Notes under the pieces: model-generated | What the model was told of the DNA's origin: nothing | The model's database searches: none | Seen by the model: only the letters and a program-made list of their open reading frames with translations | DNA from: Candidatus Omnitrophota bacterium | Lineage (GTDB): Bacteria; Omnitrophota; Gorgyraeia; JABMRG01; JAFGKX01 | DNA: 55,391 nucleotides | Direction: 5' to 3' | Assembly (NCBI GenBank): GCA_020354945.1 | Contig: CP070655.1 | Coordinates: 697,119 to 752,509 of the forward strand | Shown: positions 11,205 through 49,091 of the stretch, in pieces | Layout of the letters: the number at the start of each line of letters is the position of its first letter | Numbering within the stretch: the stretch's first letter is position 1 | Made by a program: the position numbers and the translations under genes

Positions 11205-13712
11205 TTATCGTTGAGGGGGTTTACCCATCGTAACCCGCACATAGTGGGTCTTTTCATCTTTAAAAATAGGCAGGATATTGGATTTTACACTTTTGCCGTC
11301 AACTCCTATCTCAACTATGCCAGATGAGACATGCTTGCGGTTGATAACGTCTATAATATATTTTGTTCCTCTAAATGCCCTGTAGACCTTAAATAATCGC
11401 CATCTTTTCGGTATGCAGGGCTCTATAAGCAAACCTTTATAAGTAGGTTTTATGCCCAAAATATGTTCAATTAAAATCTTATTTAGCCAGAAGGCACTCC
11501 TCCCATACCAGGAATAGCTGGCCTTCCCAAATTTGCCAGCATCCGGGCCATCTATATAACAAGAGGCCACAAACGGTTCCATTTCGTATATGTCTGCCCG
11601 GTGGGCTCTATGGACCGGATTTAATCTGGAATATATATCCCAGGCATTGTATGCCCTGTCTAATATAGTTTCTGCCCAGGCTGCCCAGCATGCAAATTCT
11701 ATATTAGTGCCGCCATTTTCTTCTGTGCCTGGAGGCAAGTAGCTTAAAGTGCCGATATTGGAATCCGCCGATTCATACGAGGGAGAAACTGCTATAGGTC
11801 CGTGATTTTTGTAAAGATGCTTAGCGGTGGTAATCAAAAGTTTCCTGGCATCATCACCTTTAATTAAACCGCTTATTACAGCCCAGGTTTGCGGATTTAA
11901 AAATATTATGCTGTTTTTTCTGCCAGATTTTCCTATAATAGCGCCTTTTGATGTTATGGCCCTTGGATACCATTCGCATTTTTTGGCAAGCTTATTTATA
12001 TTGTCTTTTATTTGATTGGACCGTTTTATAAAATCAGATGCTATTTTCCCTTCTTTTAATATGTTGCAAATAATAGAAAATTCGTCCATTATATAGCAGG
12101 CGAATTCTCCGAGCCACACAGAAGAACCCTTGCTATCTGTGCCTATTGCATCGAGCTTTTGATTACAATCACCTTTCATAATTAACGGCAGGCCTTTCTT
12201 TGGAGTTGTGGCCAGGACTTTGTCCATGGCTTTTAGGCAATGGTTAAAAATTGTATCGGTGGAAGCTCCAACATATGCTACCTTCTCTTTAAGAATAGTT
12301 AAATCGGCAGTCTCTTTTATATACTCAATGACTGCAAAAATAAGCCATAGGGGTTCATCTGAAAAATGGGATGGTTCTACTTTTGCCGTAGTGGCCCCTT
12401 TTGCAAAAACAGAACCGTCCCCTTTTTCAATTGGGTCCCAATATGTTAAAACATTGCCATCTTGAAATTGCCTTTTTGCGCATTCTATAATATTTTTCTT
12501 GCAGATCTGGGCATCGATAGGAAGAAATGTAAGGCTGTTCAGGATGAAATCTTTAAACTTAACTATTCCTTCTGCGTTATAATAACAGCCCTTAGCAGAT
12601 AATCCGGATGATATCACCTGATACCTGAACCAATTGTTATTAAGGATATTGGCTCCTTCATCCGGCGTTTTTATATTCATAGACCTTTTAAGATATCCTC
12701 CCCAGCGGCTGCCCATATTCGAAAATTCACCTTCTACCTCTTTTATCTTCTTATATTTTTTTATCAAGTCTTTAGCGGTCTTTTCATCAGGGACAGCTCC
12801 TGCAACAAAAATGAGCTCTCGCTCGCCTCTTGCCTCAATGTCTAAATCAATATGCAAGCAGGCCATAGGGTCAACATATCTTCCTTGCTCTTTAAAACAC
12901 ATACCTTTCTCAACAGAGCGAGGATTGGATGCATCCCTGTAAACACCCAAAAATGCCTTTTTGTCCGTAGTAAAACTATTTACTCGTTTGTTTACAGAAT
13001 GAAATTTCACTTCATCTTTTACCGAATAAGCAAAAATTGCAGACAGCTCCTCGTTAAAAGAAGTCCTTAAAAAGGACCTTGCCTGCCGGCAGGCAGGCTT
13101 TTCTTTATTATTCTTATCAAAATCCCATTGAAGATAGCTAAACACACTTATACTCCTTGGTTCATCCAGAATATTTCTTATTCGCAACTGCCATACCTCA
13201 ACCGGTTCCTCTTTTGCAACAAAACATATCACGCTGCTTATTATATCTGCATATCTGTTAGTTATATTTGTATAACCGACGCCATATCTAACTTCATAAA
13301 ATTCAGGTTTTCTGCACACCGGGCCCCAGGTCGGTGACCAAAATTCCTCAGTTTTATTATCTCTTATATAAAAGAATTTTCCGTCTCTATCGGTGTTTAT
13401 GTCGCCGCTCCATGCTGTTATTTTATCGGAAACACTCCCCTTAAAACTAAACCCTCCTCCGGCCTGGGTTACTATAAACCCATAATTATCATTTGTTATT
13501 ATGTTAGCCCACGGAGCCGGTGAATCCGGAGCAGTAATAACATATTCTGAACCATCGTATAGGAAAAACCCATATCTGGTTCTGAATACCTCTTTTACCT
13601 TCTCAAGCGGCAGGAGCAAAGAGGCCATATGCTTCATTTTGGCTTTTGGCCTTTTCTTTTTTGGTTTTTTCTTTTTCTTCATTTTCTTTCTCTTCATTTT
13701 TTTTCTCTTCAT
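11205..13712 (-). CDS. GH94-family glycoside phosphorylase (cellobiose/chitobiose-phosphorylase-like) with a ~27-aa poly-Lys/Arg N-terminal tail
   Basis: 835-aa ORF. From about residue 45 it parallels the in-window paralogue (RYGFFLYDGSEYVITAPDSPAPWANII versus KYGHFSKDGKEFIIINPATPRPWINYL), which is the typical GH94 N-terminus. GGAGG at 13721-13725 lies 8 nt upstream of ATG 13712. Confidence 0.85.
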   Translation of the reverse strand: MKRKKMKRKKMKKKKKPKKKRPKAKMKHMASLLLPLEKVKEVFRTRYGFFLYDGSEYVITAPDSPAPWANIITNDNYGFIVTQAGGGFSFKGSVSDKITAWSGDINTDRDGKFFYIRDNKTEEFWSPTWGPVCRKPEFYEVRYGVGYTNITNRYADIISSVICFVAKEEPVEVWQLRIRNILDEPRSISVFSYLQWDFDKNNKEKPACRQARSFLRTSFNEELSAIFAYSVKDEVKFHSVNKRVNSFTTDKKAFLGVYRDASNPRSVEKGMCFKEQGRYVDPMACLHIDLDIEARGERELIFVAGAVPDEKTAKDLIKKYKKIKEVEGEFSNMGSRWGGYLKRSMNIKTPDEGANILNNNWFRYQVISSGLSAKGCYYNAEGIVKFKDFILNSLTFLPIDAQICKKNIIECAKRQFQDGNVLTYWDPIEKGDGSVFAKGATTAKVEPSHFSDEPLWLIFAVIEYIKETADLTILKEKVAYVGASTDTIFNHCLKAMDKVLATTPKKGLPLIMKGDCNQKLDAIGTDSKGSSVWLGEFACYIMDEFSIICNILKEGKIASDFIKRSNQIKDNINKLAKKCEWYPRAITSKGAIIGKSGRKNSIIFLNPQTWAVISGLIKGDDARKLLITTAKHLYKNHGPIAVSPSYESADSNIGTLSYLPPGTEENGGTNIEFACWAAWAETILDRAYNAWDIYSRLNPVHRAHRADIYEMEPFVASCYIDGPDAGKFGKASYSWYGRSAFWLNKILIEHILGIKPTYKGLLIEPCIPKRWRLFKVYRAFRGTKYIIDVINRKHVSSGIVEIGVDGKSVKSNILPIFKDEKTHYVRVTMGKPPQR

Positions 13713-21805: not shown

Positions 21806-21809
21806 GGTA

Positions 21810-21867
21810 GGGACGTTTCCAAAATCGTTCGGGAACCTGCCCCATTTTCAATCGGGAACCTGTCCCC
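21810..21867. repeat. 58-nt dispersed intergenic element, copy 1 (inverted relative to copy 2)
   Basis: The reverse complement, ggggacaggttcccgattgaaaatggggcaggttcccgaacgattttggaaacgtccc, differs at only a few positions from 23523-23580. It contains two CAGGTTCCCGA units 23 nt apart and ends 4 nt from the glgA ATG. Confidence 0.85.
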
Positions 21868-21881
21868 TGAAGAATAATGGG

Positions 21882-23155: not shown

Positions 23156-23521
23156 ATGAAAAAGAAGGTATTAGGGGCAGTAGGAGCACTGGAGATAGAA
23201 CTTGAGGGGACCGAAAATATCATGCTTATGGTTCTCTCAGGGCAGATAGATAACTATACTTCAGAAGAGATAGCTAAAATAATAAATGAGCATATCAGCA
23301 AAGGAAATTTAAAGATTATAGTTGACTTAACCAAAGTAGACTATCTAGATAGCGCAGGGCTAAGTTGCCTTATCAATGCAAAAATAAGGCTTTCAAAAAG
23401 AAACGGCGGCCTTCGCCTTGTAGGATTAAAAGGGAAGGCGCGGGAGGTATTCGATCTGGCAGGTTTGACTCAGATGTTCGATATTCATGAGAACCGCGAG
23501 GCTGCCTTTGAGGGATTTTAA
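23156..23521 (+). CDS. STAS-domain anti-sigma-factor antagonist (SpoIIAA/RsbV-like)
   Basis: The track ORF 23009-23521 overlaps the tRNA. The real start is ATG 23156, with AGGAG at 23145-23149. The 121-aa product carries the phospho-acceptor motif VDYLDSAGLSCL. Confidence 0.85.
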   Translation: MKKKVLGAVGALEIELEGTENIMLMVLSGQIDNYTSEEIAKIINEHISKGNLKIIVDLTKVDYLDSAGLSCLINAKIRLSKRNGGLRLVGLKGKAREVFDLAGLTQMFDIHENREAAFEGF

Positions 23522-23522
23522 A

Positions 23523-23580
23523 GGGGACAGGTTCCCGATTGAAAATAGGGCAGGTTCCCGAACAAAACCAGAAACGTCCC
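23523..23580. repeat. 58-nt dispersed intergenic element, copy 2
   Basis: ggggacaggttcccgattgaaaatagggcaggttcccgaacaaaaccagaaacgtccc fills the entire gap between the convergent STAS and PP2C genes. Confidence 0.85.
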
Positions 23581-25514
23581 TATTTCGCTTTCAGCACAAT
23601 TATAGTGATATCGTCATGCTGGGGTGCTTTTCTGGTAAATTTCTTTAGTGTTTTGTAAATATGTTCTATAATCTCTTTTGCGCTTTTGTTCCTGCATTCT
23701 GAAAGCGCTTGTTTTATCCTGTTTTCACCAAATTCTTCTTTTTTGACATTCCGTGCTTCTGTAACACCATCTGTGTATAGCAAAAATATATCTCCGCTAC
23801 CAAAAGGGGTCTGCCTTTCCGTATATTCTGTCCCTTCCATAATTCCTACTGCCATACCGCCTTCTACCTTAAGGGTTTCTACTTCAGCGTTCGGATGTGC
23901 AATAATTAAGGGTAGATGGCCTGCATCTGCGAGCTTTAAAATTTTCTTTCTTACATCAGCTATCAAATAATAAACTGTTACAAAAAGGCCTGATGTTGAC
24001 TCCGCTGATATCTGATTGTTTAACCGGGCCATTACATCGGCAGGTTGGTTTCTGCCCCTTGCGTGAAATCTGAAATTGCTCACCGTCATTGCCATAAATA
24101 GAGCGGCAGGGACGCCTTTTCCGGAAACATCGCCGACCATAATGCCTATCTCATCGGCTGATATATCTACAAAATCATATAAATCTCCGCCAACTGCCTT
24201 TGCTGCATCCATAATAACAGCGATATCTAAGCCTTCTTTTTCTGGCGGGGTTTCCTTTAGGAAGCTTTTCTGAATCCTCCTGGCAATATCCAGTTCTCTC
24301 TCTATAAGCATTCGCTTATTCCTTTCAGAGATGTACTTATAAAATGTGGTAAAAAGATAAACCAGTGAAACGAGCAGCAGTGGATAAAAAAGGTCCAGCC
24401 AGGTTTTAAAAAATGCAAAGACAACATACGAAAATAAAGTAAAAACAAATAACAGCCCCACTATCATCAGCAGGCTCTTAAGAGGCTTAAGTTTCAAAGT
24501 TAAAAAACTAGCAACCAAACCAAGAAATATAAGGATTATAATATTGGTGAGTTTTCCAGCTCGATGTATAAAGTTATTGGTGAGAATAGAATTTATAATA
24601 TTTGTGTTAACGCCAACCATTGGATAATCCGCCTGCAATGGGACTGGATTTAAATCGTGTGTGCCCACAGCTGTAAGGCCTACAAGGCATATTTTATCTT
24701 TAAAAGTTTTAAGAGCCAACCTTGGCTTTTCGTTGTTTTTTAACTGAATATACGATTTTAATATATCTATAAAAGAATAATGCTTAAAGGCCTTACCCCA
24801 TCTATCAGCAAAATTTATAAGCATCTGGCCATCCTCGTCGATGCGTATTTTGATACCAGAGTCAATCTGGACAAACTTCTTATCTATCTTTACGGTATCT
24901 TGCGATTTTCCTAAATAATCACAGGCAGCTAAAAAAGAAAGCTGAGGATAAAGTCTGTCTTTATAATCGATGAAAACAGGGGTGCGCCTTAGCTTTCCAT
25001 CTATATCCGGGATTACGTTTATATGCCCGATGCCGTAGGCCGCCTTATCAAGGCTTGAAAACGGAGATGCCTCTAACTCCTGCGCTTGCGGAAAGGCGGA
25101 ATCTCCCACTTCTTTTGTGAGCCTGAATGCCAGGGCAAGATATACTCTTTTTGAAGCTGCAACTGAATTTACTAGTTCCTCATCCGAAAGCTCATTCTGC
25201 TTTTGTGCGAATATGACATCGAATATTATAGAGCGGGCACCAAATTCAGTCAATATATCTATCAGGCGTGCGTAAAATTCTCTATCGATGGGCCAGGTAC
25301 CAATTTGCTCTAAGGTATCCCGGGCTATTTCTATTATGGCTATTCTGTCCGAAGTTCTCTGGGCAGGCCTTAACTTAAACCTTAAATCTAAGGTGGCTAA
25401 TTCATATACATCAAATATTCTAAAATAGGAAATTAGAATTATCAGTGCGCTTATAACCAGTGCTGCGATTATCCCAATGGGCCGCTTGCTTATATAGATT
25501 GATTTGATAGGCAT
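23580..25514 (-). CDS. CHASE2 sensor-domain / PP2C (SpoIIE-type) serine phosphatase
   Basis: 644 aa. An N-terminal TM segment is followed by CHASE2-like DLRFKLRP...IAIIEIARDTLEQIGTWPIDREFYARLIDIL...IIFDVIF. Three TM helices and the PP2C motifs GGDLYDF, GDVSGKGVPAALFMA and YTDGVTEA follow. Confidence 0.85.
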   Translation of the reverse strand: MPIKSIYISKRPIGIIAALVISALIILISYFRIFDVYELATLDLRFKLRPAQRTSDRIAIIEIARDTLEQIGTWPIDREFYARLIDILTEFGARSIIFDVIFAQKQNELSDEELVNSVAASKRVYLALAFRLTKEVGDSAFPQAQELEASPFSSLDKAAYGIGHINVIPDIDGKLRRTPVFIDYKDRLYPQLSFLAACDYLGKSQDTVKIDKKFVQIDSGIKIRIDEDGQMLINFADRWGKAFKHYSFIDILKSYIQLKNNEKPRLALKTFKDKICLVGLTAVGTHDLNPVPLQADYPMVGVNTNIINSILTNNFIHRAGKLTNIIILIFLGLVASFLTLKLKPLKSLLMIVGLLFVFTLFSYVVFAFFKTWLDLFYPLLLVSLVYLFTTFYKYISERNKRMLIERELDIARRIQKSFLKETPPEKEGLDIAVIMDAAKAVGGDLYDFVDISADEIGIMVGDVSGKGVPAALFMAMTVSNFRFHARGRNQPADVMARLNNQISAESTSGLFVTVYYLIADVRKKILKLADAGHLPLIIAHPNAEVETLKVEGGMAVGIMEGTEYTERQTPFGSGDIFLLYTDGVTEARNVKKEEFGENRIKQALSECRNKSAKEIIEHIYKTLKKFTRKAPQHDDITIIVLKAK

Positions 25515-25517
25515 TAA

Positions 25518-26489
25518 TTAGAAGAATATATGTATGCCTGCAGACGATATGGAATCAGAATATCTATTCGTGGGTTCGTTAGAATAAGTCTGGGTATAGG
25601 TATAACCTGCGCTTATATAGGCTGATTTATATATATTATAATAGACTGTTGCGCCTAAAACAAAAGTCTTTTGTGTCTCTGTGGCATTCAGGTCTATATT
25701 TTTTCTTGTATCAAAATCTTTATATCTGTAGCTTCCGTGGCCTACTAAATACAAGACTTTAAAAACAGGCATACTTATAAAAGCGCTTGTTTTATACGAT
25801 ATATAATCGTAGTAATCCATATATTCATCATTAGAATCATTAAAATCTATTTTTTCTTCAACCTTGACTAAGAGGTCTTTTATATACCTGCCTATATTTA
25901 CAAAATCGCCTACGCCAAAAGTCATACTATGCATGCAATCCTCTCTGTTAGTACTTAAAGTTTTACCTGTGCCATCTTTAATTTTTCTTTTATCATAATC
26001 GTATTCTTTAAATTCGTAAGCGCCTGTTAAAAATAGATCCTTGTTTATGTAATATTCTATTTCAGCTAAAGGGCCTTGGGTAAAGTATGTCCCGTCTTTA
26101 TCGTGTGGATACCAGACTGAATCTAATACATACCCTGTCTTTATTGAAAAACCGTCTTTTAGATAATACTTAAAGAAAGCCCGCCCTTCATTATTTACAA
26201 GGTTTAAGTCTGTAAATTCGTTATAAGAAAGGTTTATAAAATCATACTCTACGCCAACGGCTAATTTATCGGTTATTTTATATTCGCCTTCTGCATAAAT
26301 ATCAGTTTCTGTAAACCAGTCTCCTTTTCTGGAAGAGTCTAAAAATACATTACTTTCAAAGCCTTCTTTTATTGCAGCTGCTATCTTTAAACCAAATGGA
26401 TTGAATTTTGATTCTTCGGCATCGGCTAAAGAGGGATTTAATAAAACAGTTATAAAAGACAGAATAACAAAAATTTGTAGTATTTTCAT
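25518..26489 (-). CDS. Outer-membrane beta-barrel protein, function unknown
   Basis: 323 aa. It has a signal peptide (..LNPSLADA), alternating aromatic/hydrophilic strand patterns and a C-terminal ..GIHIFF. Confidence 0.65.
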   Translation of the reverse strand: MKILQIFVILSFITVLLNPSLADAEESKFNPFGLKIAAAIKEGFESNVFLDSSRKGDWFTETDIYAEGEYKITDKLAVGVEYDFINLSYNEFTDLNLVNNEGRAFFKYYLKDGFSIKTGYVLDSVWYPHDKDGTYFTQGPLAEIEYYINKDLFLTGAYEFKEYDYDKRKIKDGTGKTLSTNREDCMHSMTFGVGDFVNIGRYIKDLLVKVEEKIDFNDSNDEYMDYYDYISYKTSAFISMPVFKVLYLVGHGSYRYKDFDTRKNIDLNATETQKTFVLGATVYYNIYKSAYISAGYTYTQTYSNEPTNRYSDSISSAGIHIFF

Positions 26490-26544
26490 AAGACGCTTCT
26501 TGTAATTAAATTATATTTTTACAATGGATTACGGTGGCTACTAC

Positions 26545-27342
26545 TCAAGATGTGCTCAGATCTCTCGTCACCTCTTCTCGTTTTTCCTGTTCTCTTTTTT
26601 CAAACCTGTCTTGTCGTTGTATCTCGATTCTTTTATCAGATCTATCCTGTAACTTCTTTATCCTGTCTATAATCTTTCTTTCCTCGCTGCGCATTTCTCC
26701 CTTTAACCGTTCCAGGAGTTTGCTAAGCTCTTCTCTGAAACGTGACCATTCTTTCTGCTCAAACCTTGTTAATGCAATTAACGGGCCAGGAGCCTTAAAT
26801 TTTCCAATTGTGCACGTGTGGCCTTCTTTTATTATTCTTTCTGCCGTCAGAGAACCATCTTTTTTTATGCCTTTTGCATATGCTTCATCTTCATGGCAGC
26901 CTGCGGTTGTTTTATTTCCGTCGGTATGTACAAATATGCCTGAGCCGGCTACCCCGCAGACAGCTGTAGGAGTGTGGACCTCAAAGCTCGAACCAGGCTC
27001 AAGCGCTTCTAATAAAGCGAATACTTTGCCCCTGAAAAGTTTGTGTTTATTAACTGCTATTCCTTCAAACAAGAATTCGCTTTCTTGTTCTATTCTTATT
27101 ACATTCTTTGCATCCTTATCAGTGGCAATCTTTACTGCAGAAAATTTGAAAGTTCTTATTCTGTCACCCCTCTTTATAGCCATTCCTTCCTTAGCTACAA
27201 TCCAATTGGTATCTTTTGCCCTTTGTAACTTAACCTGGCCCTTAAGATATATAATCTTTGCATCTGCGCCATCCGCAAATGTTAATGATATTGATAAATT
27301 CAAAAAAAACATACATACTAAAAATATTAATATTTTTCTCAT
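26545..27342 (-). CDS. Periplasmic FecR-domain protein with a ~70-aa highly charged C-terminal helix
   Basis: 265 aa. Signal peptide; FecR-like GQVKLQRAKDTNWIVAKEGMAIKRGDRIRT...FEVHTPTAVCGVAGSGIFV; tail EELSKLLERLKGEMRSEERKIIDRIKKLQDRSDKRIEIQRQDRFEKREQEKREE. Its start overlaps the mlaD stop (ATGA). Confidence 0.7.
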   Translation of the reverse strand: MRKILIFLVCMFFLNLSISLTFADGADAKIIYLKGQVKLQRAKDTNWIVAKEGMAIKRGDRIRTFKFSAVKIATDKDAKNVIRIEQESEFLFEGIAVNKHKLFRGKVFALLEALEPGSSFEVHTPTAVCGVAGSGIFVHTDGNKTTAGCHEDEAYAKGIKKDGSLTAERIIKEGHTCTIGKFKAPGPLIALTRFEQKEWSRFREELSKLLERLKGEMRSEERKIIDRIKKLQDRSDKRIEIQRQDRFEKREQEKREEVTRDLSTS

Positions 27343-28013
27343 TTTTTCTCCCTACTTCTACCTTTTTCCGGCTTCTTCTTCTCCTTTGTCTTAATGAGAA
27401 GCTTCCAGGGATATCGTCTTATATCATCTGAAAATGCTTCGAAATTAGCAGCAGTGGTTTTAAGTTTACCTATTATAAAATCTATGTCTTCTCTGTTTTC
27501 TAGCACAAGTTTATCTAGATTATTTATGAGCGAGCGCATATCTGCCATCGTAGATTCAACCCCTGTAGCAACCTTTCTCCCAATGTTAATAAGTTCTTCC
27601 GTCATAGTTGGGTCTTCTCCGGTTATAACAGAACCTGGTTTTAAAAATGGTGCTCCCGGAGGCCCATCGGTTAGCTCGACATATTTCTCGCCCATCATCC
27701 CCAGCATGCTGACATATGCTTTGGTTCCTTCTCTTACCTTGGCTTTCTCCTTTAAAAGCAACGTCAATAAAATCTTAGTCTCATCGCCTCTGTATAAAAT
27801 CTCTACGTCTTTTACCTCGCCCGCCTCGACGCCACGTAATCTCACCGGTGCATGTTCTTCAAGGCCGCCTACCCAATTAAACATTGCCTTTAATTCATAT
27901 GTCTTTTCTATGCCCATAAAATTAGTTATTGCAAGAGTAAAACCTGCCAATATAATTAAACATAACAGAATTAAAAGTCCTGTCTTTATCTCATTAGCTA
28001 TTCTTTTCGCCAT
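27339..28013 (-). CDS. mlaD: MCE-domain protein, MlaD-like
   Basis: 224 aa. N-terminal TM anchor, MCE core FNWVGGLEEHAPVRLRGVEAGEVKDVEI, and a Lys-rich tail. Confidence 0.85.
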   Translation of the reverse strand: MAKRIANEIKTGLLILLCLIILAGFTLAITNFMGIEKTYELKAMFNWVGGLEEHAPVRLRGVEAGEVKDVEILYRGDETKILLTLLLKEKAKVREGTKAYVSMLGMMGEKYVELTDGPPGAPFLKPGSVITGEDPTMTEELINIGRKVATGVESTMADMRSLINNLDKLVLENREDIDFIIGKLKTTAANFEAFSDDIRRYPWKLLIKTKEKKKPEKGRSREKK

Positions 28014-28028
28014 TTTCTCCTCCGTTCC

Positions 28029-28829
28029 TCATTCCGTTAACTGTTTTAAATAATCGTCTCCCTCTTGAAAAAATCTTATTGGGCCTTCGGGGCTTCCTTT
28101 TATAAACTGCTGCACTCTGGCATCTGTCGAATTTCTTATTTCATCAGGCATGCCTTCTGCTATTACCTCTCCTTCATAAAGCATTGCTATTCTATCGGCG
28201 ATACTAAAAACGCTTTGCATATCATGGGTTACTACCACGGAGGTAATCTGTAACTTCTTACTTAAATCAAGGATAAGTTTATTTACAACGCCTGCAACAA
28301 TAGGGTCTAATCCTGCGGTCGGCTCATCATAAAAGACCATTTCAGGGTCCAGCGCTATTGCCCGGGCTAATCCCACTCGTTTCCTCATTCCTCCTGAAAG
28401 CTGAGACGGCATAAGTCTTTCAAAACCTCTTAAGCCCACTAATTCCAATTTCATCTTTACCATAATCTTCATAATATTCTCATCGAGCTTGGTATGCTCT
28501 CTTAAAGGCAGGGTTATATTATTTTCTACACTCATTGAGTCAAAAAGGGCTGAACTCTGAAAGACCATACCAAATCTTTTTCTTATCTTATCAAATTCGC
28601 TTTCAGGAAGCTGAGTTATATCCTTGCCTTTTATAAAAACCTGGCCAGAATCAGGCATATGCGAACCTACTATATGACGAAGGAGTGTAGATTTACCGCA
28701 GCCACTTCCCCCCATGATTACCATGGTCTCGCCTTTATAAACTTTGAGATTAACCTTATTTAACACACGCCTTCCGTCAAAACTTTTGACCAAATCCTTA
28801 ATTTCTATTACTGCTTCTTTTTCTTGCAT
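28029..28829 (-). CDS. mlaF: ABC transporter ATP-binding protein, MlaF-like
   Basis: Walker A GGSGCGKST, signature LSGGMRKRVGLARA and Walker B VFYDEPTAGLD. The track start at 28838 is TTG; ATG 28829 (MQEKEAV..) is preferred. Confidence 0.9.
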   Translation of the reverse strand: MQEKEAVIEIKDLVKSFDGRRVLNKVNLKVYKGETMVIMGGSGCGKSTLLRHIVGSHMPDSGQVFIKGKDITQLPESEFDKIRKRFGMVFQSSALFDSMSVENNITLPLREHTKLDENIMKIMVKMKLELVGLRGFERLMPSQLSGGMRKRVGLARAIALDPEMVFYDEPTAGLDPIVAGVVNKLILDLSKKLQITSVVVTHDMQSVFSIADRIAMLYEGEVIAEGMPDEIRNSTDARVQQFIKGSPEGPIRFFQEGDDYLKQLTE

Positions 28830-28913
28830 TTCGTTCAATTTTACAGAAAAATTTCCTTTTTATATAATTTTTGTGCTGTAAAGTATCCCCTTGGGACCTG
28901 GTCCCTAAATAAA

Positions 28914-29711
28914 TTACATATTTGAGAAATAGAATATCCCGGTCAGAACACAATCTGCTAATATAATAAGGATAAAGCTGGCAACCACACTCACAGTGGT
29001 AGAATTGCCCACTCCTTCAGCGCCACCTTTTGTGCTTAATCCCATGTAACAACCGATTGTAGAAATTATTCCGGCGAAGACAAATGATTTAAAAAGACCA
29101 GTATAGATGTCCCTCAGCTCCAGAAATTCTATAGTCTTATCAATATACATACCGCTACTTAACCCTAAATTAAACACGCCTATTAACCAGCCGCCAAACA
29201 TTCCTACCAGATCAGAAAAAATAGTGAGGCATGGCAGCATAATCAAAAGGGCTATAATGCGAGGAACAGCCAGATACCTTACTGGATTAAGGGCCAGTGT
29301 TCGAAGCGCTTCTATTTGATCTGTGACATTCATACTACCCAATTCAGCTGTAATGGCTGCCCCTACCCTGCCTGCAACCACTAAAGCAGTCAATACCGGA
29401 CCTAATTCTCTGGCAATAGAAACCGCTACTAAGCTAGCCACATACATTGTCGCACCCAATTTTTCCAACTGATAGGCGCTTTGCATAGCAAGAACGATTC
29501 CAGTAAAAAGACTGACAAAAAAGACTATCAAGGTGCTCCTTACCCCAGAAAATACCATCTGTTCAAATAGACTCCTCCTGGATACAATCTTTCCTTTAAA
29601 CGGGCCTATAATGAGCCAGTAAAAAACCTGAGCGAGCAAAATGGTAATGCCTACTATGTGTCTTTTTGTCTCAATACCAAAACGCCCTATAATTGCGACT
29701 GGATTTGCCAT
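28914..29711 (-). CDS. mlaE: ABC transporter permease, MlaE-like
   Basis: 265 aa, multi-TM, with the MlaE family motif VVAGRVGAAITAELGSMNVTDQIEALRTLALNPVRYLAVPR. Confidence 0.9.
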   Translation of the reverse strand: MANPVAIIGRFGIETKRHIVGITILLAQVFYWLIIGPFKGKIVSRRSLFEQMVFSGVRSTLIVFFVSLFTGIVLAMQSAYQLEKLGATMYVASLVAVSIARELGPVLTALVVAGRVGAAITAELGSMNVTDQIEALRTLALNPVRYLAVPRIIALLIMLPCLTIFSDLVGMFGGWLIGVFNLGLSSGMYIDKTIEFLELRDIYTGLFKSFVFAGIISTIGCYMGLSTKGGAEGVGNSTTVSVVASFILIILADCVLTGIFYFSNM

Positions 29712-29720
29712 AATTTCGTC

Positions 29721-30053
29721 CTAAAAACCCGCTACAGCCTGTTCAGCAGTATCATATATTTGGAATATTTTTTCAAGCTTGGTTATTTCGAATAAGGCCT
29801 TTACCTTATCTGCCAAATTGGACAATCTAAGTCCGCCTCCATAAATTTTTATCTTCTTAAGCATCTCTACCAGCGTAGCTAAACCAGAGCTATCGATATA
29901 AGAAACCTCCGCAAGGTTTATGACTATCTTCTTCTGATAAGAGGCGGTCAATTCAGCAAAAGTCTTTCTTATGTCAGGGGAAGAATTAATATCTATATCT
30001 CCGTTTATATGACATATTACTACGCCTTGCTGGGTGGTTTTAGTTATCTTCAT
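29721..30053 (-). CDS. STAS-domain protein (anti-sigma antagonist / MlaB-like)
   Basis: 110 aa with the conserved phospho-acceptor context SYIDSSGLATLVEML. Its start overlaps the kinase stop (ATGA). Confidence 0.88.
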   Translation of the reverse strand: MKITKTTQQGVVICHINGDIDINSSPDIRKTFAELTASYQKKIVINLAEVSYIDSSGLATLVEMLKKIKIYGGGLRLSNLADKVKALFEITKLEKIFQIYDTAEQAVAGF

Positions 30054-30517
30054 CCTTCCTCCTTAAGATATTTTATCATCGTAACTCTATTTCCGTCCTT
30101 GTTAAAAAATACTTCGTTCATAAGATGCTTCATCAGGTATATACCTCGCCCTTTTGTCTTTAATAAATTCTTCCTAACAGTAGGATCTGGCAAGTGTTTA
30201 TAGTCAAAGCCGCTGCCTCTGTCTTCTATAGATACCTTAAACATCTCATCTGAGATAGAATAGTCTATTTTTACAAGCAGATTTCCATTATTTTTATTAC
30301 CGTGTTTTACTGCATTTATCAGGGCCTCTTCTAAACATAACCTTATATCAAAAGATGTAGATTTATTAATTCCTAAAGAGTGGAGTAATTTCAATATATT
30401 CTGAATGAGCTTGTTAACTTTGCTTAAACGGCTGGGTATCTGAACAGTATAAGATCTATTCACCCCGTTAGAAATATTGTTTCTAGGGAGGTTTATAAAA
30501 TTTCTAACTTGGTTCAT
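30050..30517 (-). CDS. Anti-sigma-type serine protein kinase (RsbW/SpoIIAB-like HATPase_c)
   Basis: 155 aa. N box [11 protein letters not shown] and G boxes EDRGSGFD and [10 protein letters not shown]. It overlaps the accA 3' end by 14 nt. Confidence 0.85.
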
Positions 30518-31466
30518 TAAAAATGCCTATTTTTCTAAACTTTTCATAGCGGGTTTTAAGCATCTCATCCTTATCCAGGGCGGAAACCTCCTTAAGATTT
30601 TTTATCATCGAGGCCTTTACATTCTTCATTGCCTGTTCAGGATTTCTATGCGCCCCTCCTAATGGTTCTTTTATAACTTCGTCAATTATTCCCAGCTCTA
30701 GAAGTTCATCAGCAGTTATTTTTAGAACCTTTGCTGCTTCAGGGGCTTTGGTTCTATCTCTCCATAATATAGCAGCGCATCCTTCCGGAGAAATGACTGA
30801 ATAATAGGCATTTTCCATAACGCATATTTTATCGCCTACGCCTATGCCTAAGGCCCCGCCACTGCCGCCTTCTCCTATCACAACTATTATAATAGGCACA
30901 GCTATCTGGGCCATCTCGTGTAAATTATATGCAATAGCCTCCGCCTGGCCCCTCTCTTCTGCGCCAATCCCGGGATAAGCTCCGGGCGTATCTATAAAAC
31001 AAAAAACAGGCACATCGAACTTTTCAGCGAGTTTCATAACCCTTATGGCCTTCCGGTAACCTTCCGGATGGGCACTTCCGAAATTGCGCTTTAAATTCTC
31101 CTTAATGTCCCGCCCTTTTTGATGGCCGATAATCATAATCCTAAAATTATTCAGCTTGGCCAGGCCACAGGCAATAGCCCTATCATCAGAAAAACTCCTG
31201 TCTCCGTGTAATTCTATAAAATCTGACATAATTGTCCGGACGTAATCTAATGTATAAGGCCTTTTGGGATGGCGGGATATCTGCACTCTCTGCCAGGAGG
31301 ATAGATTATTAAAAACTTCGCGTTTTACCTTTTCCAGTTTGTCTTCGAGTTTTTTTATTTCAGACTGCAGATTTATCTTTTCGGAAGTAGTAAATTTTTT
31401 TAACTCTTCTATTTTTCTTTCGAGTTCCAAAATAGGTTTTTCAAAATCTAAACCACTGCCGTTCAT
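30504..31466 (-). CDS. accA: Acetyl-CoA carboxylase carboxyltransferase alpha subunit
   Basis: 320 aa. [28 protein letters not shown] and [22 protein letters not shown] are typical AccA motifs. Confidence 0.95.
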
Positions 31467-32932: not shown

Positions 32933-33361
32933 TCACTCCTCGCCTTTAAACATCCTATTTAAACTGTCTAAAGGTGAAGGATTGACACCTTTATAATTCT
33001 CTGCCGTGGAATAGGCAATTATTTTACCCATTGCAATAGGATTTGTTTCCAAAAACTGTATACCGGTATCATAATAAGCTGAAAGGGCGTCGCCTTCACC
33101 GGTTATTTCTATCCTTCTGGTCCAGGCTACTCTCCCCTTTATATTATAGTCTTGCGGTTTTGTCTTTGGGGCAATTATATTTATGTTAAGCCTGGTATCC
33201 GGCAGAAGTTTCTCAAGCAACGAAAGGCAAATTCCGCCACCGCTTACATTCTTACTTACAGCCTTTTTTACATCATGCGGCCTGGTAGAGACTTCGTAAT
33301 TGACCTTTATGGGAAGGCTTAACCTTTCATAAAGGCGGTCTTCTGTAGGCTTTTCATCCAT
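32933..33361 (-). CDS. Stand-alone PilZ-domain (c-di-GMP receptor) protein
   Basis: 142 aa with RLYER (RxxxR) and NVSGGG (D/NxSxxG) motifs at the expected spacing. Confidence 0.75.
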   Translation of the reverse strand: MDEKPTEDRLYERLSLPIKVNYEVSTRPHDVKKAVSKNVSGGGICLSLLEKLLPDTRLNINIIAPKTKPQDYNIKGRVAWTRRIEITGEGDALSAYYDTGIQFLETNPIAMGKIIAYSTAENYKGVNPSPLDSLNRMFKGEE

Positions 33362-41607: not shown

Positions 41608-44115
41608 TTATACTGCCTCGAGAACGATTTTTCTCATTCTCTTGCGAGAATCATACTTGTCTTCTTCAGGCTCAACTGTAGTCCCGCGAATCTCTGTAGA
41701 ATTTTCAACCGCCTTTCTAAGAACCTCGAGTTGATCTCTAGATATCATGCCTTCCAAAGTTTCAATAGCATTGATAAGCGACTTGCGATGTGAAATATAC
41801 TGGCCTTCCGATGGCCGCATAATAACCTGAACTAACATACCAGCAATGTTTGGATTTGCGGCAATCGCAGCAATCAAGGCTTTGTTTTGTTCTGCCATAC
41901 GGAATAGCACCTCATTAGGCAGAGCGCCTGCCCTTTTGCCTACCGCAGCAACTGCATTTTGAACTTCAGGCGCAATCTCACCGGCAAGTGCTCCAATGTC
42001 AAACAATAAAATTGGTATACCTGCTTGTTGCAATACATCAACTATCTCTTCAGGAGTTTCAAACCTGTTGCTATAAACTGCTCTGTAGTATCTTTGTTTG
42101 CCGCCTGCAGTTTTAATCTCTGCCAATGTATTTAAGTCTGCTATTATACTTACTGCAAAATCAGTCGGCGCATATACTATCTCGCCGGTCTCAGTTTTTC
42201 CAACTTCAACCACTAAAGCATCCAAATCTGTAATTATAAGTTTAGTCTGATTATCAGCCGTTACTATTGGAAGAGATTGCTTGACTTCAGTAGCTTCAAA
42301 AGCACCCTCCTGCTGGATTAAAAGTGCCCTGCCGGCAGGGGTCGGTACTTCTACTGTTTCCAATTCCTCGCCAATTCCAGATATTGCTTCAGCAGGCTCC
42401 ATTAACGCTGATACTTCTTTTACAGGTTCAACAGTAGCAAGCTCACGAAGAACTTCTTCTTCCTCTAATCCCGCCGGGATAGACACTAGCTCAACCTCTT
42501 CCTCTAATGGCGCCGTAATACCAAGCTCTACTTCTTCAGTTGTTACTTCTCCAGTTCCTGAATCTTCTAGATAAATCACTCCTGTGCCAATCCTAATAAT
42601 TTGGGATGTAATACCTTCCCCGGCTGGCAACAGAAGGTCATAAACATTCATTGGAGCCATAAGCGTTACACCTGGAGTGGTCCGCACTCCAGCAAATGCC
42701 TCTTTAAGGTGGGTTATCTGTTCAGGCGTAATCTGGGCAATGTGCTCCGTCACCTTAGCTAGCTCATTTGAAACCTTAACAACTTCGCTATGGGTGGGTG
42801 TTTTTTCGTAGGCGTTGAACATATAAAGCACAATGGCCTCGTGAACTGCAGCATGCGCGAATTCTTGCTGTAATTTCTCACTAGATGCCTCCTCGGTTTC
42901 AGGATTGCCCATTAATCTAATCCTCCTGCTCTTAAAACCAACCTTTCCTGCAAAAGGTTTTAACCCTTTGCTAAATGCCTCTGTACCTTCATTCATGGCT
43001 GTTTTATAAGCTGGTACAGTTACATAGCCTGAAGAAAAAAGTTTAAGCATATAGGAGTAAAAATTTTCTCTTTCTGCTTTAACTTGCTGTTGGGTCGGTA
43101 GCGCACCAGTAGTCAGCTCTGCTAAGCCTTTATAAAATCTGCTTGATTCTGTGCTATTTAAGGCCAGTAAAAGGCGCAACAATGGTACAACCTCTGCTTG
43201 ATTTCCAATCTCAGTTACATTAACTTTGCCTTTTAATAATTCAGGTATATTGATAACATGCTCATTCGCTTCGCCTCTTTCAACAAATGGATTGATAAGA
43301 ACTCTACGCAAGGCATGTGCTGTCTCTCTAACCTTACCAGCTTCTTCAGTTGTAAGGCCTATGGGCACTTCCATAGCTTTCCCAAGCTTTGTTGTTTTTA
43401 TATCGATAGCCATTTCACCGTATATTTTTTGTGCTATAACAGGGCCAAGTTTATTTAAAAGTGTCTGCGTTATAATATTTAATTGCTCATGTTGGGGTGT
43501 AGGGAAAAATACTCTTATAAACTCATGTATAGACATTTTAGCCGCTGACTCTGGCAATAGCGTAACATCTGTTGGAGTTTCCGGCTGGGCCTGGGCTAGC
43601 TTAATTATTCCCGCTGGTGTAAGCTTGCCCGCAAGATTTGCAGGGATTCCGAGTTGCTCCCTTTGCAATGCTTCGGGTAATTGATTGATTGCTGCAGCAT
43701 ATAATGCGCGTTCTTCCTGGGGCCTGGTAGCCAAAGCTGCAATAAGTCCTGGCTGGGCCTGTTCCGGAGCAGTCTCCACTGCCACAACACTTTCTATTCT
43801 CTCCTGTTCCGGATTAGGAACAATGGCGTATAGAAAAGGCTGTTTGGGAACTTCTGGATTTATAGCCACGGCATAATATGTATTCCCTTCTGGTATTGCT
43901 TCTGTGACAAACTCGCTCATATCAGTAATAGCCTTAACTTGTTTATCAAGGTCTGCGCCGCGCTCAGCGGCTGTTTGGGCTGCTTTTAGATCTGAGCGAA
44001 AGTCAGCATTGTATATCGTTTCCACAACAGGGTTATAGCTAAACCCTGCCATCAACAACGCCGCTATAAACACTGCTTCCAAAGATAATATCACTTTCAT
44101 TCTATGCTTTTTCAT
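41608..44115 (-). CDS. 835-aa Ala/Glu/Pro-rich envelope protein with N-terminal membrane anchor, function unknown
   Basis: ATG 44115 lies 3 nt after the upstream stop and is preceded by AGGGGA. TM/signal KVILSLEAVFIAALLMAG; acidic stretch EEVELGITAPLEEEVELVSIPAGLEEEEV. No motif recognised. Confidence 0.7.
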   Translation of the reverse strand: MKKHRMKVILSLEAVFIAALLMAGFSYNPVVETIYNADFRSDLKAAQTAAERGADLDKQVKAITDMSEFVTEAIPEGNTYYAVAINPEVPKQPFLYAIVPNPEQERIESVVAVETAPEQAQPGLIAALATRPQEERALYAAAINQLPEALQREQLGIPANLAGKLTPAGIIKLAQAQPETPTDVTLLPESAAKMSIHEFIRVFFPTPQHEQLNIITQTLLNKLGPVIAQKIYGEMAIDIKTTKLGKAMEVPIGLTTEEAGKVRETAHALRRVLINPFVERGEANEHVINIPELLKGKVNVTEIGNQAEVVPLLRLLLALNSTESSRFYKGLAELTTGALPTQQQVKAERENFYSYMLKLFSSGYVTVPAYKTAMNEGTEAFSKGLKPFAGKVGFKSRRIRLMGNPETEEASSEKLQQEFAHAAVHEAIVLYMFNAYEKTPTHSEVVKVSNELAKVTEHIAQITPEQITHLKEAFAGVRTTPGVTLMAPMNVYDLLLPAGEGITSQIIRIGTGVIYLEDSGTGEVTTEEVELGITAPLEEEVELVSIPAGLEEEEVLRELATVEPVKEVSALMEPAEAISGIGEELETVEVPTPAGRALLIQQEGAFEATEVKQSLPIVTADNQTKLIITDLDALVVEVGKTETGEIVYAPTDFAVSIIADLNTLAEIKTAGGKQRYYRAVYSNRFETPEEIVDVLQQAGIPILLFDIGALAGEIAPEVQNAVAAVGKRAGALPNEVLFRMAEQNKALIAAIAANPNIAGMLVQVIMRPSEGQYISHRKSLINAIETLEGMISRDQLEVLRKAVENSTEIRGTTVEPEEDKYDSRKRMRKIVLEAV

Positions 44116-44118
44116 TTT

Positions 44119-45783
44119 TTATTCCCCTGCTTTTTCTTTGCTTAAATTTTTAAATATTAACTTATGCGCATCGGCAAAGTATTTTGCCGCCTGCTGAAAT
44201 ACTATTGCGTCAGGATTACTCCTTTTATTCCTTGTTAGCTGTTTATGCAGATGTTCCTCAAACGGGGTTCTTTCATTCATAAGCACTGATATATAAGGGT
44301 TATTTTCTTCGTCTAATTCATTCACTTTTGGAGTTACTACCAGGTAAGAGATACCCTTTTTCTTTAAAGCATCGATTATCCCTTCTGTGTGAAATCCTCC
44401 TGCTACTAAAATCGCCTGCTTTATATTAATCTGATTCATTTTATTTACGGTATTATCGACCAGTATTTTGTCTCTCTCTAAGGCCAAACTATAAAATTTT
44501 TCTAAATCCGGAAGCCGGGCATCAATCTTTCTAAATGCAGGATTGATGGTATATTTTATTCTATATTTGGGCGCATTTTCAGTAATAAAATTTATAAAAT
44601 TTGATGCCAGAAATTGGCTTCTGTTTTTTCTGTAATAATCCAGAGTCTTCGTTGTCAGTTTAAGGTTGGCTAAATTTTTCAAAACTTCAATATTTTTAGA
44701 TAATCTATCTATATCCCGTTCTATTTCCCTCATAAACTGCTTATTTTTAATCGCATCCTGTATCCTGTTAATCTCTTCAAAAAGCCCCATATGTTTAATA
44801 TCATTATATACTAATATATAATCTATATATTTTCCAAGCTCGGGATAATCTTCAAAATTAACCCTGGAGGCGTTATCGACAACTTCTTTTAGATATGAGT
44901 AAAATTCGACCGCTCCAATATCTGCTGTCTTAAAATGAAGGCTCATATCCAGAAGTTTTGACAGGTTTTCATCCTTTAATCTTTTGCTTAACTTCTCTAT
45001 GCATTTTGAGCGCTGGGTGTCAACCAGAGTAAAATCTATATCTTTTTCAAGCTCAAGCACCATTATAAGCTTGTTAAAATTACGCCAATTTTCCTTTTCT
45101 ATTTTATATCCAGCAATAAGCCCATTTAAATAAACTGCAAATTCTCCAAAGGAAACTTCTTCATTTTTATATGCTTGAATTTGATTATCGAGCATCAAAA
45201 GCTTTTTGTTATATGCCTTTTGTTTGAATTTACCCAGAATCGATTTTATATTGCCGCAGAAGGCATTGTTTTCGGCTCTGGTGTCTAATGAGCCCCTAAA
45301 GGCTTCTGCATTTTGTTTATACAGAGTTGTATTATCTGCCCCCCAGAATGCAAATGAACTCTTATTCATTATATGGGCATATGCAGCCCCGTCAATTCTT
45401 CCTCTCTTTACAAAGTAGCGGGCTACCTTTGCCTTAATCTCTTCGTCCGGGTAATTAGAAAAAGGCGCAGTCTCTAATCTACCGACAGAACCTTCTACCG
45501 TAACCAGTTTAAAATCGTGTTCATTTACTAGCTTATCTAGCATTTTATATATACTCTGCTGTGCATCGTAATTGCAATGCAAATCCTGAATATGAACGAT
45601 TAACAAATCGCTATAATTGTTGATATACTTATCTTTTATGGTGCCGAAGTTGTCAGGTATTGATAAATTAGAAAGAGATTTTACCTCTTGTATTCCATCA
45701 GCGCTTATAGCAATAGCGCTATTTATGCCTATAAAGCATAGTATAGCTATTATAACTATAAAATATCGTTTAAAATTACCCAT
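44119..45783 (-). CDS. Membrane-anchored protein, possibly of the TIKI/TraB/ChaN-type superfamily; function unknown
   Basis: The track start 45822 is TTG; ATG 45783 (MGNFKRYFIVIIAILCF) is preferred. IVHIQDLHCNYDAQ...LVTVEGSVG near the N-terminus and AILVAGGFHTEGI near the C-terminus resemble the paired GxxH/E motifs of that superfamily. This is from memory and is a weak call. Confidence 0.6.
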   Translation of the reverse strand: MGNFKRYFIVIIAILCFIGINSAIAISADGIQEVKSLSNLSIPDNFGTIKDKYINNYSDLLIVHIQDLHCNYDAQQSIYKMLDKLVNEHDFKLVTVEGSVGRLETAPFSNYPDEEIKAKVARYFVKRGRIDGAAYAHIMNKSSFAFWGADNTTLYKQNAEAFRGSLDTRAENNAFCGNIKSILGKFKQKAYNKKLLMLDNQIQAYKNEEVSFGEFAVYLNGLIAGYKIEKENWRNFNKLIMVLELEKDIDFTLVDTQRSKCIEKLSKRLKDENLSKLLDMSLHFKTADIGAVEFYSYLKEVVDNASRVNFEDYPELGKYIDYILVYNDIKHMGLFEEINRIQDAIKNKQFMREIERDIDRLSKNIEVLKNLANLKLTTKTLDYYRKNRSQFLASNFINFITENAPKYRIKYTINPAFRKIDARLPDLEKFYSLALERDKILVDNTVNKMNQINIKQAILVAGGFHTEGIIDALKKKGISYLVVTPKVNELDEENNPYISVLMNERTPFEEHLHKQLTRNKRSNPDAIVFQQAAKYFADAHKLIFKNLSKEKAGE

Positions 45784-45855
45784 TTCCCCATTCCCCGTTT
45801 TCACGTAGGCAAACTTTTCCAAAACTTTATTTCATATTTTTAAAATTACAACAAA

Positions 45856-45884
45856 AGTATACCATAAAAAACCCTTTTTGTCAA
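45856..45884 (-). promoter_or_regulatory. Near-consensus sigma70 promoter (TTGACA-17-TATACT) ahead of the 567/835-aa genes
   Basis: On the minus strand, TTGACA lies at 45884-45879 and TATACT at 45861-45856, with a 17-nt spacer. Confidence 0.55.
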
Positions 45885-45930
45885 GGGAAAAGTCTAATTT
45901 TTTTACCCCACGCAATGCATCGGCTAGGGG

Positions 45931-48900: not shown

Positions 48901-48936
48901 AAGCCCTACCCTAAATAATTTTTTAATTACCTGCAT
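45931..48936 (-). CDS. ~1,000-aa outer-membrane protein: signal peptide, TPR-like helix pair, ~110-aa basic Pro/Lys/Arg/Glu linker, very large beta-rich C-terminal domain
   Basis: ATG 48936 (MQVIKKLF..) is preceded by GGGAGGTG; the track start 48951 is GTG. The linker reads RRPVRRRPIKELRERLKEKLELARKPKMVKRPERVEKVPEIEKPAKAEKAPPEYVREKPRHVERRRRIEKPKR. The C-terminus ..RLIYKGKF is typical of BAM substrates. Confidence 0.7.
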   Translation of the reverse strand: MQVIKKLFRVGLIFTFLLSSTPFSYGAEVATNFFQPCQHKQVYQYYIEKAEDYLVNDQPEAALEAYKKALMVQPISKEAKQRIEYIKKMLKKRQRSKMAREREEAISVALERVEKRRFRKPLARRPVRRRPIKELRERLKEKLELARKPKMVKRPERVEKVPEIEKPAKAEKAPPEYVREKPRHVERRRRIEKPKRIAKEVPPEHVRHEVSGMERMKSFYREYLDPAEFSNGIDKSIQQGTQEINSGIAPGKISGEYRTALGFTSDDVIWKDANADHVGVPGEKNWRYLFGERMYNMYDRKIYSRLRVEAEGPVTQNLSAYSEIVVDPWTFVGRKDVTVTGSSGANVDMTLKYWSNARRILNETYRADNGDIVNLSESKVIDGKTSEEAYLGLNDWGPATYTVPETTIDRMYVPIRKLWVDYDNGPYHIRLFPMANQDEALTSDDPLRLSNNKAWWEESPWLDEYEPSRVFTRTGNPVKQGQWIRRLSSVAKDSDYERLTFLRGISASANYDNALSIESTFAAPRNLWDYYDEVSSVPGAVRVKLPAMGDTKLAGIYTTKLGIYKQDIEALNQVIGADGQYLYSPDTSIYGECAFSFTNIEEANDYDRDYWGAGYTIGFKNKGNLRPFGDHYELNLSLAHMNDNFLPGLSNYRMTRKDSIYAKHIYFDDLKPENEAEMLGNGIDIDRIAVNVNAKVIFPMLLPNNDLITRLDWRDVRSDSGNFIEDVTRVEAEYKWTPKLTAKGMVRYKHLPETEEGIDPLINAKTSYIAFTDYFSDKDVWLKNDIIEEGKDPSIGTFSLGLKYDALKNLSLQAIYEVTNDPLDMPRGLLNNGWVTQETRDGVLCDKIVPFLYSQSSFDQPPYSYYNIYKLRLACHPIDALKIEPSYVYNENRFATTIDDNVNHTGINFEYKPDNKLTLGLSYYYTMIRDLYRDTIGGEGENFDGHHNVFLAADYALNPNQTFSIMFGEYTGYGKEYYEEYTSIGPLDTQHIVRLIYKGKF

Positions 48937-49054
48937 TCTAGCACCTCCCACCGATACACCGTTGCAAGACGAAGCCTAAGCAATCAGATGCCGTTTTTTT
49001 ATTATAGCATACTTTATAAAAAAATCAACCTCTATTTTATTATATTATTAAATA

Positions 49055-49091
49055 GGAACAGCAACCGTTTATTTTAAACGGTCGCTGTTCC
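49055..49091 (-). terminator. 17-bp hairpin overlapping the stop codon of GH94 gene 2
   Basis: ggaacagcaaccgttta-ttt-taaacggtcgctgttcc, followed by A/T-rich sequence on the minus strand. Confidence 0.6.

Follow-up and report, generated by a model that had tools for sequence, protein, structure and literature searches.

The closest described relative of the transporter presented below is the MlaFEDB complex of Escherichia coli and Acinetobacter baumannii (PDB 6XGY, 6XBD, 7D06), encoded by an operon that ends with the gene of a single-domain STAS protein. This protein, MlaB, binds the ATPase MlaF in a complex whose structure has been solved, with Thr52 in a central position of the interface; a phosphomimetic replacement (T52E) weakens MlaF binding, and phosphoregulation of MlaB was raised by the authors as a possibility, without evidence (Kolich et al., PMC7367683). 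No kinase acting on MlaB was reported in a 2023 review or in the later papers searched. STAS proteins are also components of partner-switching modules, of which RsbU-RsbV-RsbW-SigB and SpoIIE-SpoIIAA-SpoIIAB-SigF of Bacillus are the classical examples. The phospho-state of a STAS protein may also control a non-transcriptional target, as for HenR/All4160 of Anabaena and SypE/SypA of Vibrio fischeri (polysaccharide synthesis and biofilm functions), although none of these targets is an ABC transporter and none of these modules lies in the operon of its target. Here we describe a locus that combines both kinds of system. It is found in a stretch of 55,391 nt (hereafter the window) from a metagenome-assembled genome (MAG) of Candidatus Omnitrophota, and it represents a conserved arrangement of the uncultivated phylum Omnitrophota in which the genes for MlaEFD, the core of a lipid ABC transporter, lie between those of a serine-phosphorylation switch with three components. 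The eight genes of the cluster are listed in their order from the kinase onwards, followed by two neighbours, with the supporting family matches and their E-values.

30050..30517, minus strand: RsbW/SpoIIAB-type GHKL serine kinase, 155 aa (HATPase_c_2 PF13581, 1e-25)
29721..30053, minus strand: STAS1, single-domain STAS protein (STAS, 7e-23)
28914..29711, minus strand: MlaE permease (MlaE PF02405, 1e-79)
28029..28838, minus strand: MlaF ABC ATPase (MlaF NCBIfam PRK11831, 3e-81)
27339..28013, minus strand: MlaD (MlaD PF02470, 5e-16)
26545..27342, minus strand: secreted FecR-domain protein (FecR, 5e-5; 24.1 bits, cutoff 24.0)
25518..26489, minus strand: outer-membrane beta-barrel, 323 aa, 14 strands (AlphaFold2 model and Foldseek)
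23580..25514, minus strand: CHASE2-PP2C membrane sensor phosphatase (CHASE2, 3e-53; SpoIIE/PP2C, 5e-50)
23156..23521, plus strand: STAS2, second single-domain STAS protein with the motif DSAGL (STAS, 3e-20)
30504..31466, minus strand: accA, acetyl-CoA carboxylase carboxyltransferase alpha subunit (ACCA, 2e-151)

Locus tags of this MAG carry the prefix JSW18_, and identical proteins are recorded as JSW18_03815 and JSW18_03820. A first-pass annotation of this DNA had described eight minus-strand genes linked by ATGA overlaps or gaps of 84 nt or less, together with a second STAS gene (DSAGL) converging on the phosphatase gene. Our check of the open reading frames (ORFs) and the family scans reproduce these coordinates and domains, and the junction sequences bear out the spacing. 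The kinase/STAS1 and mlaD/fecR junctions are ATGA overlaps, and the gaps between STAS1 and mlaE, mlaF and mlaD, fecR and the barrel gene, and the barrel and phosphatase genes are of 9, 15, 55 and 3 nt. The gap between mlaE and mlaF is of 75 nt if the TTG start of the latter (28838) is used and of 84 nt, the maximum given before, when counted from the first ATG (28829). Upstream, accA overlaps the start of the kinase gene by 14 nt, so that the co-directional array continues beyond the cluster. At the other end the STAS2 and phosphatase genes are indeed convergent, with 58 nt between their stop codons and a tRNA-Leu directly upstream of STAS2. A scan for promoters and terminators gave counts equal to the shuffle background and is uninformative on transcript structure.

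A search with the kinase returned 88 database relatives, the named ones all belonging to Omnitrophota. With one genome per GTDB species, the relatives numbered at least 590; the 80 best were taken, and the proteins of the window were then mapped onto 84 loci. The first-pass annotation had staked its reading on the recurrence of the kinase, STAS, MlaEFD and PP2C genes in relatives, and the association clearly recurs: the order kinase-STAS-MlaE-MlaF-MlaD is found in 45 of the 84 loci (42 species representatives and three metagenome contigs), with kinases 39%-56% identical to that of the window and with flanking genes that vary from locus to locus. In L001 (kinase 56% identical) all eight genes appear in the same order between unrelated flanks, L002 (49%) has the cluster without the barrel, and L003 (45%) has kinase-STAS-MlaEFD plus a weak FecR-like gene and no phosphatase. 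A different arrangement, with STAS, kinase and rhomboid genes, is seen in L004 (35%). In 32 loci, from Gimesia, Gemmataceae, Phycisphaerae and other Planctomycetota, the order is STAS-kinase with no adjacent Mla genes, and the remaining seven are truncated or rearranged. For the 33 Mla-linked loci in which the downstream sequence reaches 7 kb or more, we also counted the gene content after mlaD. A CHASE2-PP2C gene follows in 31 of them, either with both FecR-like and barrel genes (18 loci), with the FecR-like gene (three), with the barrel gene (two) or alone (eight); the other two loci (L003 and L023) have the FecR-like gene, with or without the barrel, and no phosphatase. Such an arrangement of genes is beyond chance.

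The history of the kinase tells the same story. In a neighbour-joining tree of the kinase cores the 45 Mla-linked kinases form one clade together with those of L025, L036, L039 and L047 (two rearranged loci and two truncated contigs, all nested in this clade), while all 30 sister-type kinases (Planctomycetota, STAS-kinase order, no Mla genes) fall in the other clade. In L025 the genes read accA-kinase-STAS-CHASE2/PP2C and the Mla genes that would lie between them are missing, and in L039 MlaEFD lies ~6 kb upstream of CHASE2/PP2C-kinase-STAS; since their kinases nest in the Mla-linked clade, both are secondary rearrangements. Between all six protein families the pairwise distances agree (r = 0.59-0.89), as expected if they were inherited vertically as one unit. 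In this one kinase clade the association of the switch with mlaEFD is close and old. Among the Mla-linked loci, 18 (within L006-L058) come from third-party annotation (TPA) MAGs labelled 'uncultured Planctomycetia/Planctomycetales' that carry the Omnitrophota-type cluster. These labels are probably naming artefacts, because in the kinase tree these loci are interspersed among those labelled Omnitrophota.

The first-pass annotation had called the switch complete, and we agree with it: kinase, STAS protein and PP2C phosphatase are all present with intact catalytic or acceptor residues. The three families and their catalytic and acceptor motifs are those of the Bacillus systems. Across 32-46 orthologs the motifs of the kinase, PP2C, MlaF and STAS proteins are each ~98-100% conserved, and as far as sequence can tell the components of the switch are functional. 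The kinase, soluble by hydropathy like STAS1, is a HATPase_c_2 GHKL serine kinase of the partner-switching type, and all 46 orthologs share its N-box (N68), G1 box (G101/G103) and G2 box (G123-R-G). Its best matches among solved structures are SenB, RsbW and SpoIIAB; the top one is PDB 9qih 'SenB' (304 aa, E 1.6e-12), ahead of the other two, and a literature search on SenB yielded no paper. The phosphatase consists of a first transmembrane helix, a periplasmic CHASE2 sensor domain of ~290 aa, a transmembrane cluster and a cytoplasmic PP2C domain of the SpoIIE family. CHASE2 (PF05226) matches residues 23-333 with 181 bits, helices were predicted at 13-31, 322-340 and 348-366 (another, the third of the cluster, was placed by eye at ~370-392) and the PP2C domain (PF07228) extends over residues 454-643, where all 32 orthologs have D462, S464-G-K-G467, D582-G583 and D634-D635. 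In one relative (L012, 14584-18174) there are two CHASE2-PP2C genes in tandem.

The transporter genes encode an MlaE, MlaF and MlaD core, clearly homologous to that of MlaFEDB. MlaE matches PF02405 with 267 bits and TIGR00056 with 250.6 bits, above the cutoff of 212.2, and is 58-83% identical across related loci. The best NCBIfam match of MlaF, PRK11831 (272.9 bits), is below the equivalog cutoff of 441; its matches to the MlaF structures of A. baumannii, Pseudomonas aeruginosa and E. coli in the PDB range from 4e-75 to 8e-66. The Walker A K49, the signature S148-G-G-M151, D171-E172 and H205 are 100% conserved in 42 orthologs, all of which keep a C-terminal extension of ~22 aa. With its LSGGM signature and this extension, MlaF is a true Mla-type ATPase. 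MlaD (PF02470, 59 bits) has a single anchor helix (residues 11-29) and a helical, Lys-rich C-terminal tail. Neither MlaC (PF05494) nor MlaA (PF04333) had a match in the window ORFs scanned or in the flanks of L001-L003, a difference from the classical system. Their absence is ordinary, and common outside the Proteobacteria, because the ancestral core consists of MlaEFD only, MlaA, MlaB and MlaC being sparsely distributed (Grasekamp et al., PMC10665443).

STAS1 is the component in which the two systems would meet. It lies upstream of mlaE and not at the operon end as in MlaFEDB, it is a full-length SpoIIAA-type protein, and a kinase and a phosphatase are encoded alongside. Compared with Bacillus, the order of the kinase-STAS pair is the reverse of the usual one, no sigma gene is adjacent, the input of the phosphatase is a periplasmic CHASE2 domain and an ABC lipid transporter separates the phosphatase from the kinase/STAS pair. 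The predicted phospho-acceptor of STAS1 is Ser55, in Y-I-D-S-S-G-L-A-T; D54-S55-S56-G57 is invariant in 46 orthologs, within an equally invariant Y-x-DSSG-x-AT. With 90.6 bits against the ant_ant_sig model TIGR00377 (cutoff 53.45), STAS1 belongs with the phosphorylatable antagonists, and its matches in the structure database are TM1442 (1e-17), RsbV (2e-12) and SpoIIAA (1e-10). By these comparisons STAS1 is a canonical SpoIIAA/RsbV-type anti-sigma antagonist and not an MlaB. In a weak match (E ~0.01), residues 43-92 align with residues 40-89 of MlaB, placing Ser55 on Thr52 of the E. coli protein, so that both have a Ser/Thr in the same position at the start of helix 2. STAS2 is 31% identical to STAS1 over its full length, and its orthologs (66-74% identity), downstream and in the same orientation, were found only in L005, L007, L008, L010 and L017.

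These observations suggest a switch that would act post-translationally on the transporter and not on a sigma factor. We infer that unphosphorylated STAS1 would take the role of MlaB, with its helix-2 face bound to the MlaF ATPase, and would stabilise or activate MlaF2E2D6. The kinase would phosphorylate Ser55, the equivalent of MlaB Thr52, and so expel STAS1 from MlaF, and the CHASE2 phosphatase would dephosphorylate STAS1 upon an envelope signal perceived in the periplasm, which the FecR-like protein and the outer-membrane barrel, where present, may relay. It would be partner switching with the transporter as its output, because one face of the STAS protein would bind either the kinase or MlaF. 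Some form of functional coupling between the switch and the Mla transporter we consider likely; the STAS1-to-MlaF mechanism, as specified here, we regard as nearly an even prospect. No paper naming both MlaE and RsbW was found in the literature, nor one joining partner-switching and MlaB in a relevant sense.

Several observations weigh against STAS1 acting as an MlaB. It does not qualify by sequence as an MlaB-family subunit: it reaches 30.9 bits with the MlaB model NF033618 (cutoff 90), and the MlaB structures in the PDB match it only at E ~0.01. The majority of Mla systems operate without a STAS partner (PMC10665443). MlaF's C-terminal extension was considered as a sign of such a partner and rejected; since MlaF of Veillonella parvula retains an extension without MlaB, it proves nothing in this respect (PMC10665443). 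As L025 and L039 illustrate, the switch is positionally separable from the Mla genes. In a mirror-tree analysis of 32 genomes the best partial correlation of STAS1 was with MlaF (0.34), a signal made unreliable by the fact that known partners score around zero (-0.06 for kinase-STAS1, -0.02 for MlaE-MlaF). Finally, the STAS/kinase divergence ratio is 0.89 for the Mla-linked and 0.87 for the Planctomycetota pairs, so this relative-constraint test, biased by sister-clade segments that are tblastn cores only, reveals neither additional constraint on STAS1 nor an additional partner in comparison with the sister-clade STAS proteins.

The sigma factor is the classical output to be considered in its place. 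In the main ORFs of at least 100 aa, scanned against Pfam over the 55-kb window, no sigma-70-family domain was found, and the flanks of L001-L003, as annotated with Pfam, also lack a sigma factor, except for one weak GerE match ~9 kb off in L002; the first-pass statement that no sigma factor is nearby holds for both. None follows the sampled sister-clade kinases either, the downstream genes of which encode an integrase, MutS, a rhomboid protein, Nramp, an epimerase and a transglutaminase-like protein, and the lack of a neighbouring sigma factor is therefore a trait of the whole kinase family. No classical partner-switching target stands next to the kinase in the window or in the sampled relatives, and such a neighbourhood fits a non-sigma target and a distant target equally well. 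As a separate observation, a rhomboid protease gene comes directly after a sister-clade kinase in two unrelated loci (L004, 4658-6884, and L083, 9730-11446), a possible non-sigma pairing.

Direct gating of Mla assembly or ATPase activity by the phospho-state of the STAS protein, set by the kinase and the envelope-sensing CHASE2 phosphatase with a possible barrel/FecR input, is a reading to which we give somewhat less than an even chance, and other explanations have to be weighed with it. The module might be a classical transcriptional switch whose sigma factor, perhaps the housekeeping one, is encoded elsewhere, with STAS1 and STAS2 as antagonists and the Mla genes merely co-transcribed or part of the same envelope-stress regulon. 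STAS1 and the kinase are, after all, typical RsbV/RsbW-SpoIIAA/AB proteins by sequence, and in L025 the switch persists although no Mla genes separate its components. There is also a precedent for an orphan module in the Planctomycetota-Verrucomicrobiota-Chlamydiota (PVC) group, since Chlamydia, which lacks SigB, has RsbW, two RsbV paralogs and an RsbU with a periplasmic sensor, and the RsbW protein forms a complex with sigma-66, the housekeeping sigma factor (PMC11619594). The Rsb system of Chlamydia trachomatis (RsbU, RsbV1, RsbV2, RsbW) resembles the locus described here in its PVC origin, in its membrane phosphatase with a periplasmic sensor, in the lack of a dedicated alternative sigma factor beside the module and in its two STAS paralogs, RsbV1/RsbV2 being paralleled by STAS1/STAS2, although it is reported to act on sigma-66, no Mla linkage has been described and its sensor is not CHASE2. 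A sigma factor as the output nevertheless leaves unexplained why kinase and STAS genes stand immediately upstream of mlaE in 45 loci with differing flanks, and none is found in the window or beside the sampled kinases of this or the sister clade. Co-transcription alone seldom keeps gene order at 40-50% protein identity. We consider this explanation rather unlikely.

The same conserved linkage would be expected if the output ran through the kinase, which could bind and inhibit, or phosphorylate, MlaF or another Mla subunit until dephosphorylated STAS1 captures it and frees the subunit. In classical systems it is the kinase that holds the target, and the sequence of STAS1 resembles that of a pure antagonist. 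We know of no RsbW-type kinase that binds an ABC ATPase, whereas a STAS-MlaF complex has been solved (PMC7367683), and we find this route quite unlikely. Another target, unlinked or upstream, could be acetyl-CoA carboxylase or a second-messenger enzyme, the Mla genes being then neighbours in a locus for lipid or envelope homeostasis. STAS proteins control enzymes elsewhere, one cited example being a diguanylate cyclase of Sinorhizobium meliloti. In 22 of the 39 Mla-linked loci with sufficient upstream sequence the accA gene directly precedes the kinase gene, and in the Mla-less L025 it remains beside kinase-STAS-PP2C, which hints at a link of fatty-acid synthesis to the switch. This linkage belongs to a single subclade, however, and 17 loci with upstream room lack accA, whereas the Mla linkage spans the clade, so that a target of this kind seems improbable. 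Least probable by far is mere adjacency in a long co-directional array, with no functional link. Nearly all genes from 11 to 55 kb of the window are indeed on the minus strand, and the promoter and terminator scans do not speak to the matter, but the order kept in 45 loci with different flanks, the monophyly of their kinases and the overlaps typical of translational coupling argue against it.

The FecR-like protein and the barrel form a less constant part of the cluster. Both have signal peptides. The FecR-like protein, with a long charged C-terminal helix, reaches the threshold of the FecR domain, its homologs are annotated as PF04773, and it is secreted, unlike the usual membrane-anchored anti-sigma factor. 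Its AlphaFold2 model has a predicted local distance difference test (pLDDT) score of 56.6, with a beta-rich region (28-180) and a helix (193-261), and is too poor for fold comparison. For the 323-aa protein, in which the first-pass annotation had seen an outer-membrane barrel, Pfam matches were sub-threshold only, and two of its homologs have PF10082 matches. Its AlphaFold2 model (pLDDT 76.8, predicted template modelling score 0.70) has a signal helix, 14 long antiparallel strands and a C-terminal Phe, and the top Foldseek matches are all outer-membrane barrels (OmpC, chitoporin, FadL, OmpG, CymA), which supports the assignment. The barrel is a generic, porin-like fold that lacks Plug and TonB-receptor domains, and no extracytoplasmic function (ECF) sigma factor was found in the window. 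FecR-like genes were detected in 23 and barrel genes in 21 of the 33 complete loci.

It had been suggested that these two proteins substitute for MlaC and MlaA. This, the least secure point of the earlier reading, is probably wrong, since the pair is missing from eight of the 33 complete loci and differs between close relatives (L028 is without it, L040 with it), and a lipid route seems unlikely. We favour, and judge on balance probable, an optional signal-input cassette for the phosphatase, because the pairing of FecR with CHASE2 and signalling from a barrel to CHASE2 are known elsewhere. A FecR-domain gene lies beside a CHASE2 sensor, as here, in the BiofilmReg operon of Burkholderia and in the CHASE2 cyclase clusters of Campylobacterota, and the outer-membrane barrel NsrA of S. 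meliloti (NsrA-CyaD1/D2/K) is needed for signal perception by CHASE2 cyclases; in these systems the outputs are histidine kinases or adenylate cyclases and not a PP2C phosphatase. L003 and L023 weigh against a sensor input, as FecR is kept after mlaD without a nearby phosphatase in both (with the barrel also in L023). In another relative (L048, 5448-7801) there are three FecR-like paralogs.

The window contains other features of note. An intergenic element of ~60 nt is present in two near-identical copies, one (23522-23581, plus strand) between the stop codons of STAS2 and the phosphatase gene and the other (21809-21868, minus strand) directly upstream of the start of the glycogen synthase gene (glgA). 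Each copy has two direct CAGGTTCCCGA half-sites 23 nt apart, and these four exact copies compare with 0.3 expected by chance. On the shared strand no RNA fold was significant, neither an Rfam match nor a copy in the 84 related loci was found, and the element may be a tandem protein-binding site. The glycogen gene set (glgC, a glycoside hydrolase family 57 gene, glgA and a galT-like gene) adjoins the cluster, and two GH94 (glycoside hydrolase family 94) phosphorylases are encoded at 11205-13712 and 49069-51522 (minus strand). Two PilZ-domain proteins are encoded at 32933-33361 and 51570-53507 (minus strand). A giant gene (1-10713, minus strand) is cut by the left edge of the window and encodes 3571 aa or more, and at 41608-48951 (minus strand) there are three large ORFs in succession, of 835, 567 and 1006 aa; none of these four has a Pfam match.

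The component families, and partner-switching outputs other than sigma factors, were already known; what is new is their conserved union with an Mla operon. The idea of MlaB phosphoregulation has been without enzymes since 2020, and the cluster supplies a candidate kinase, phosphatase, acceptor serine and envelope sensor in one operon, so that it becomes testable with recombinant proteins. If the proposed mechanism is true, this would be a natural case of that regulation and the first switch by Ser phosphorylation to be dedicated to a lipid ABC transporter of bacteria, and a membrane transporter would join the few outputs of partner-switching modules that are not sigma factors. A defined physiological context would be gained for the CHASE2 domain, which is poorly understood, and MlaB and the anti-sigma antagonists would appear as two ends of one regulatory continuum.

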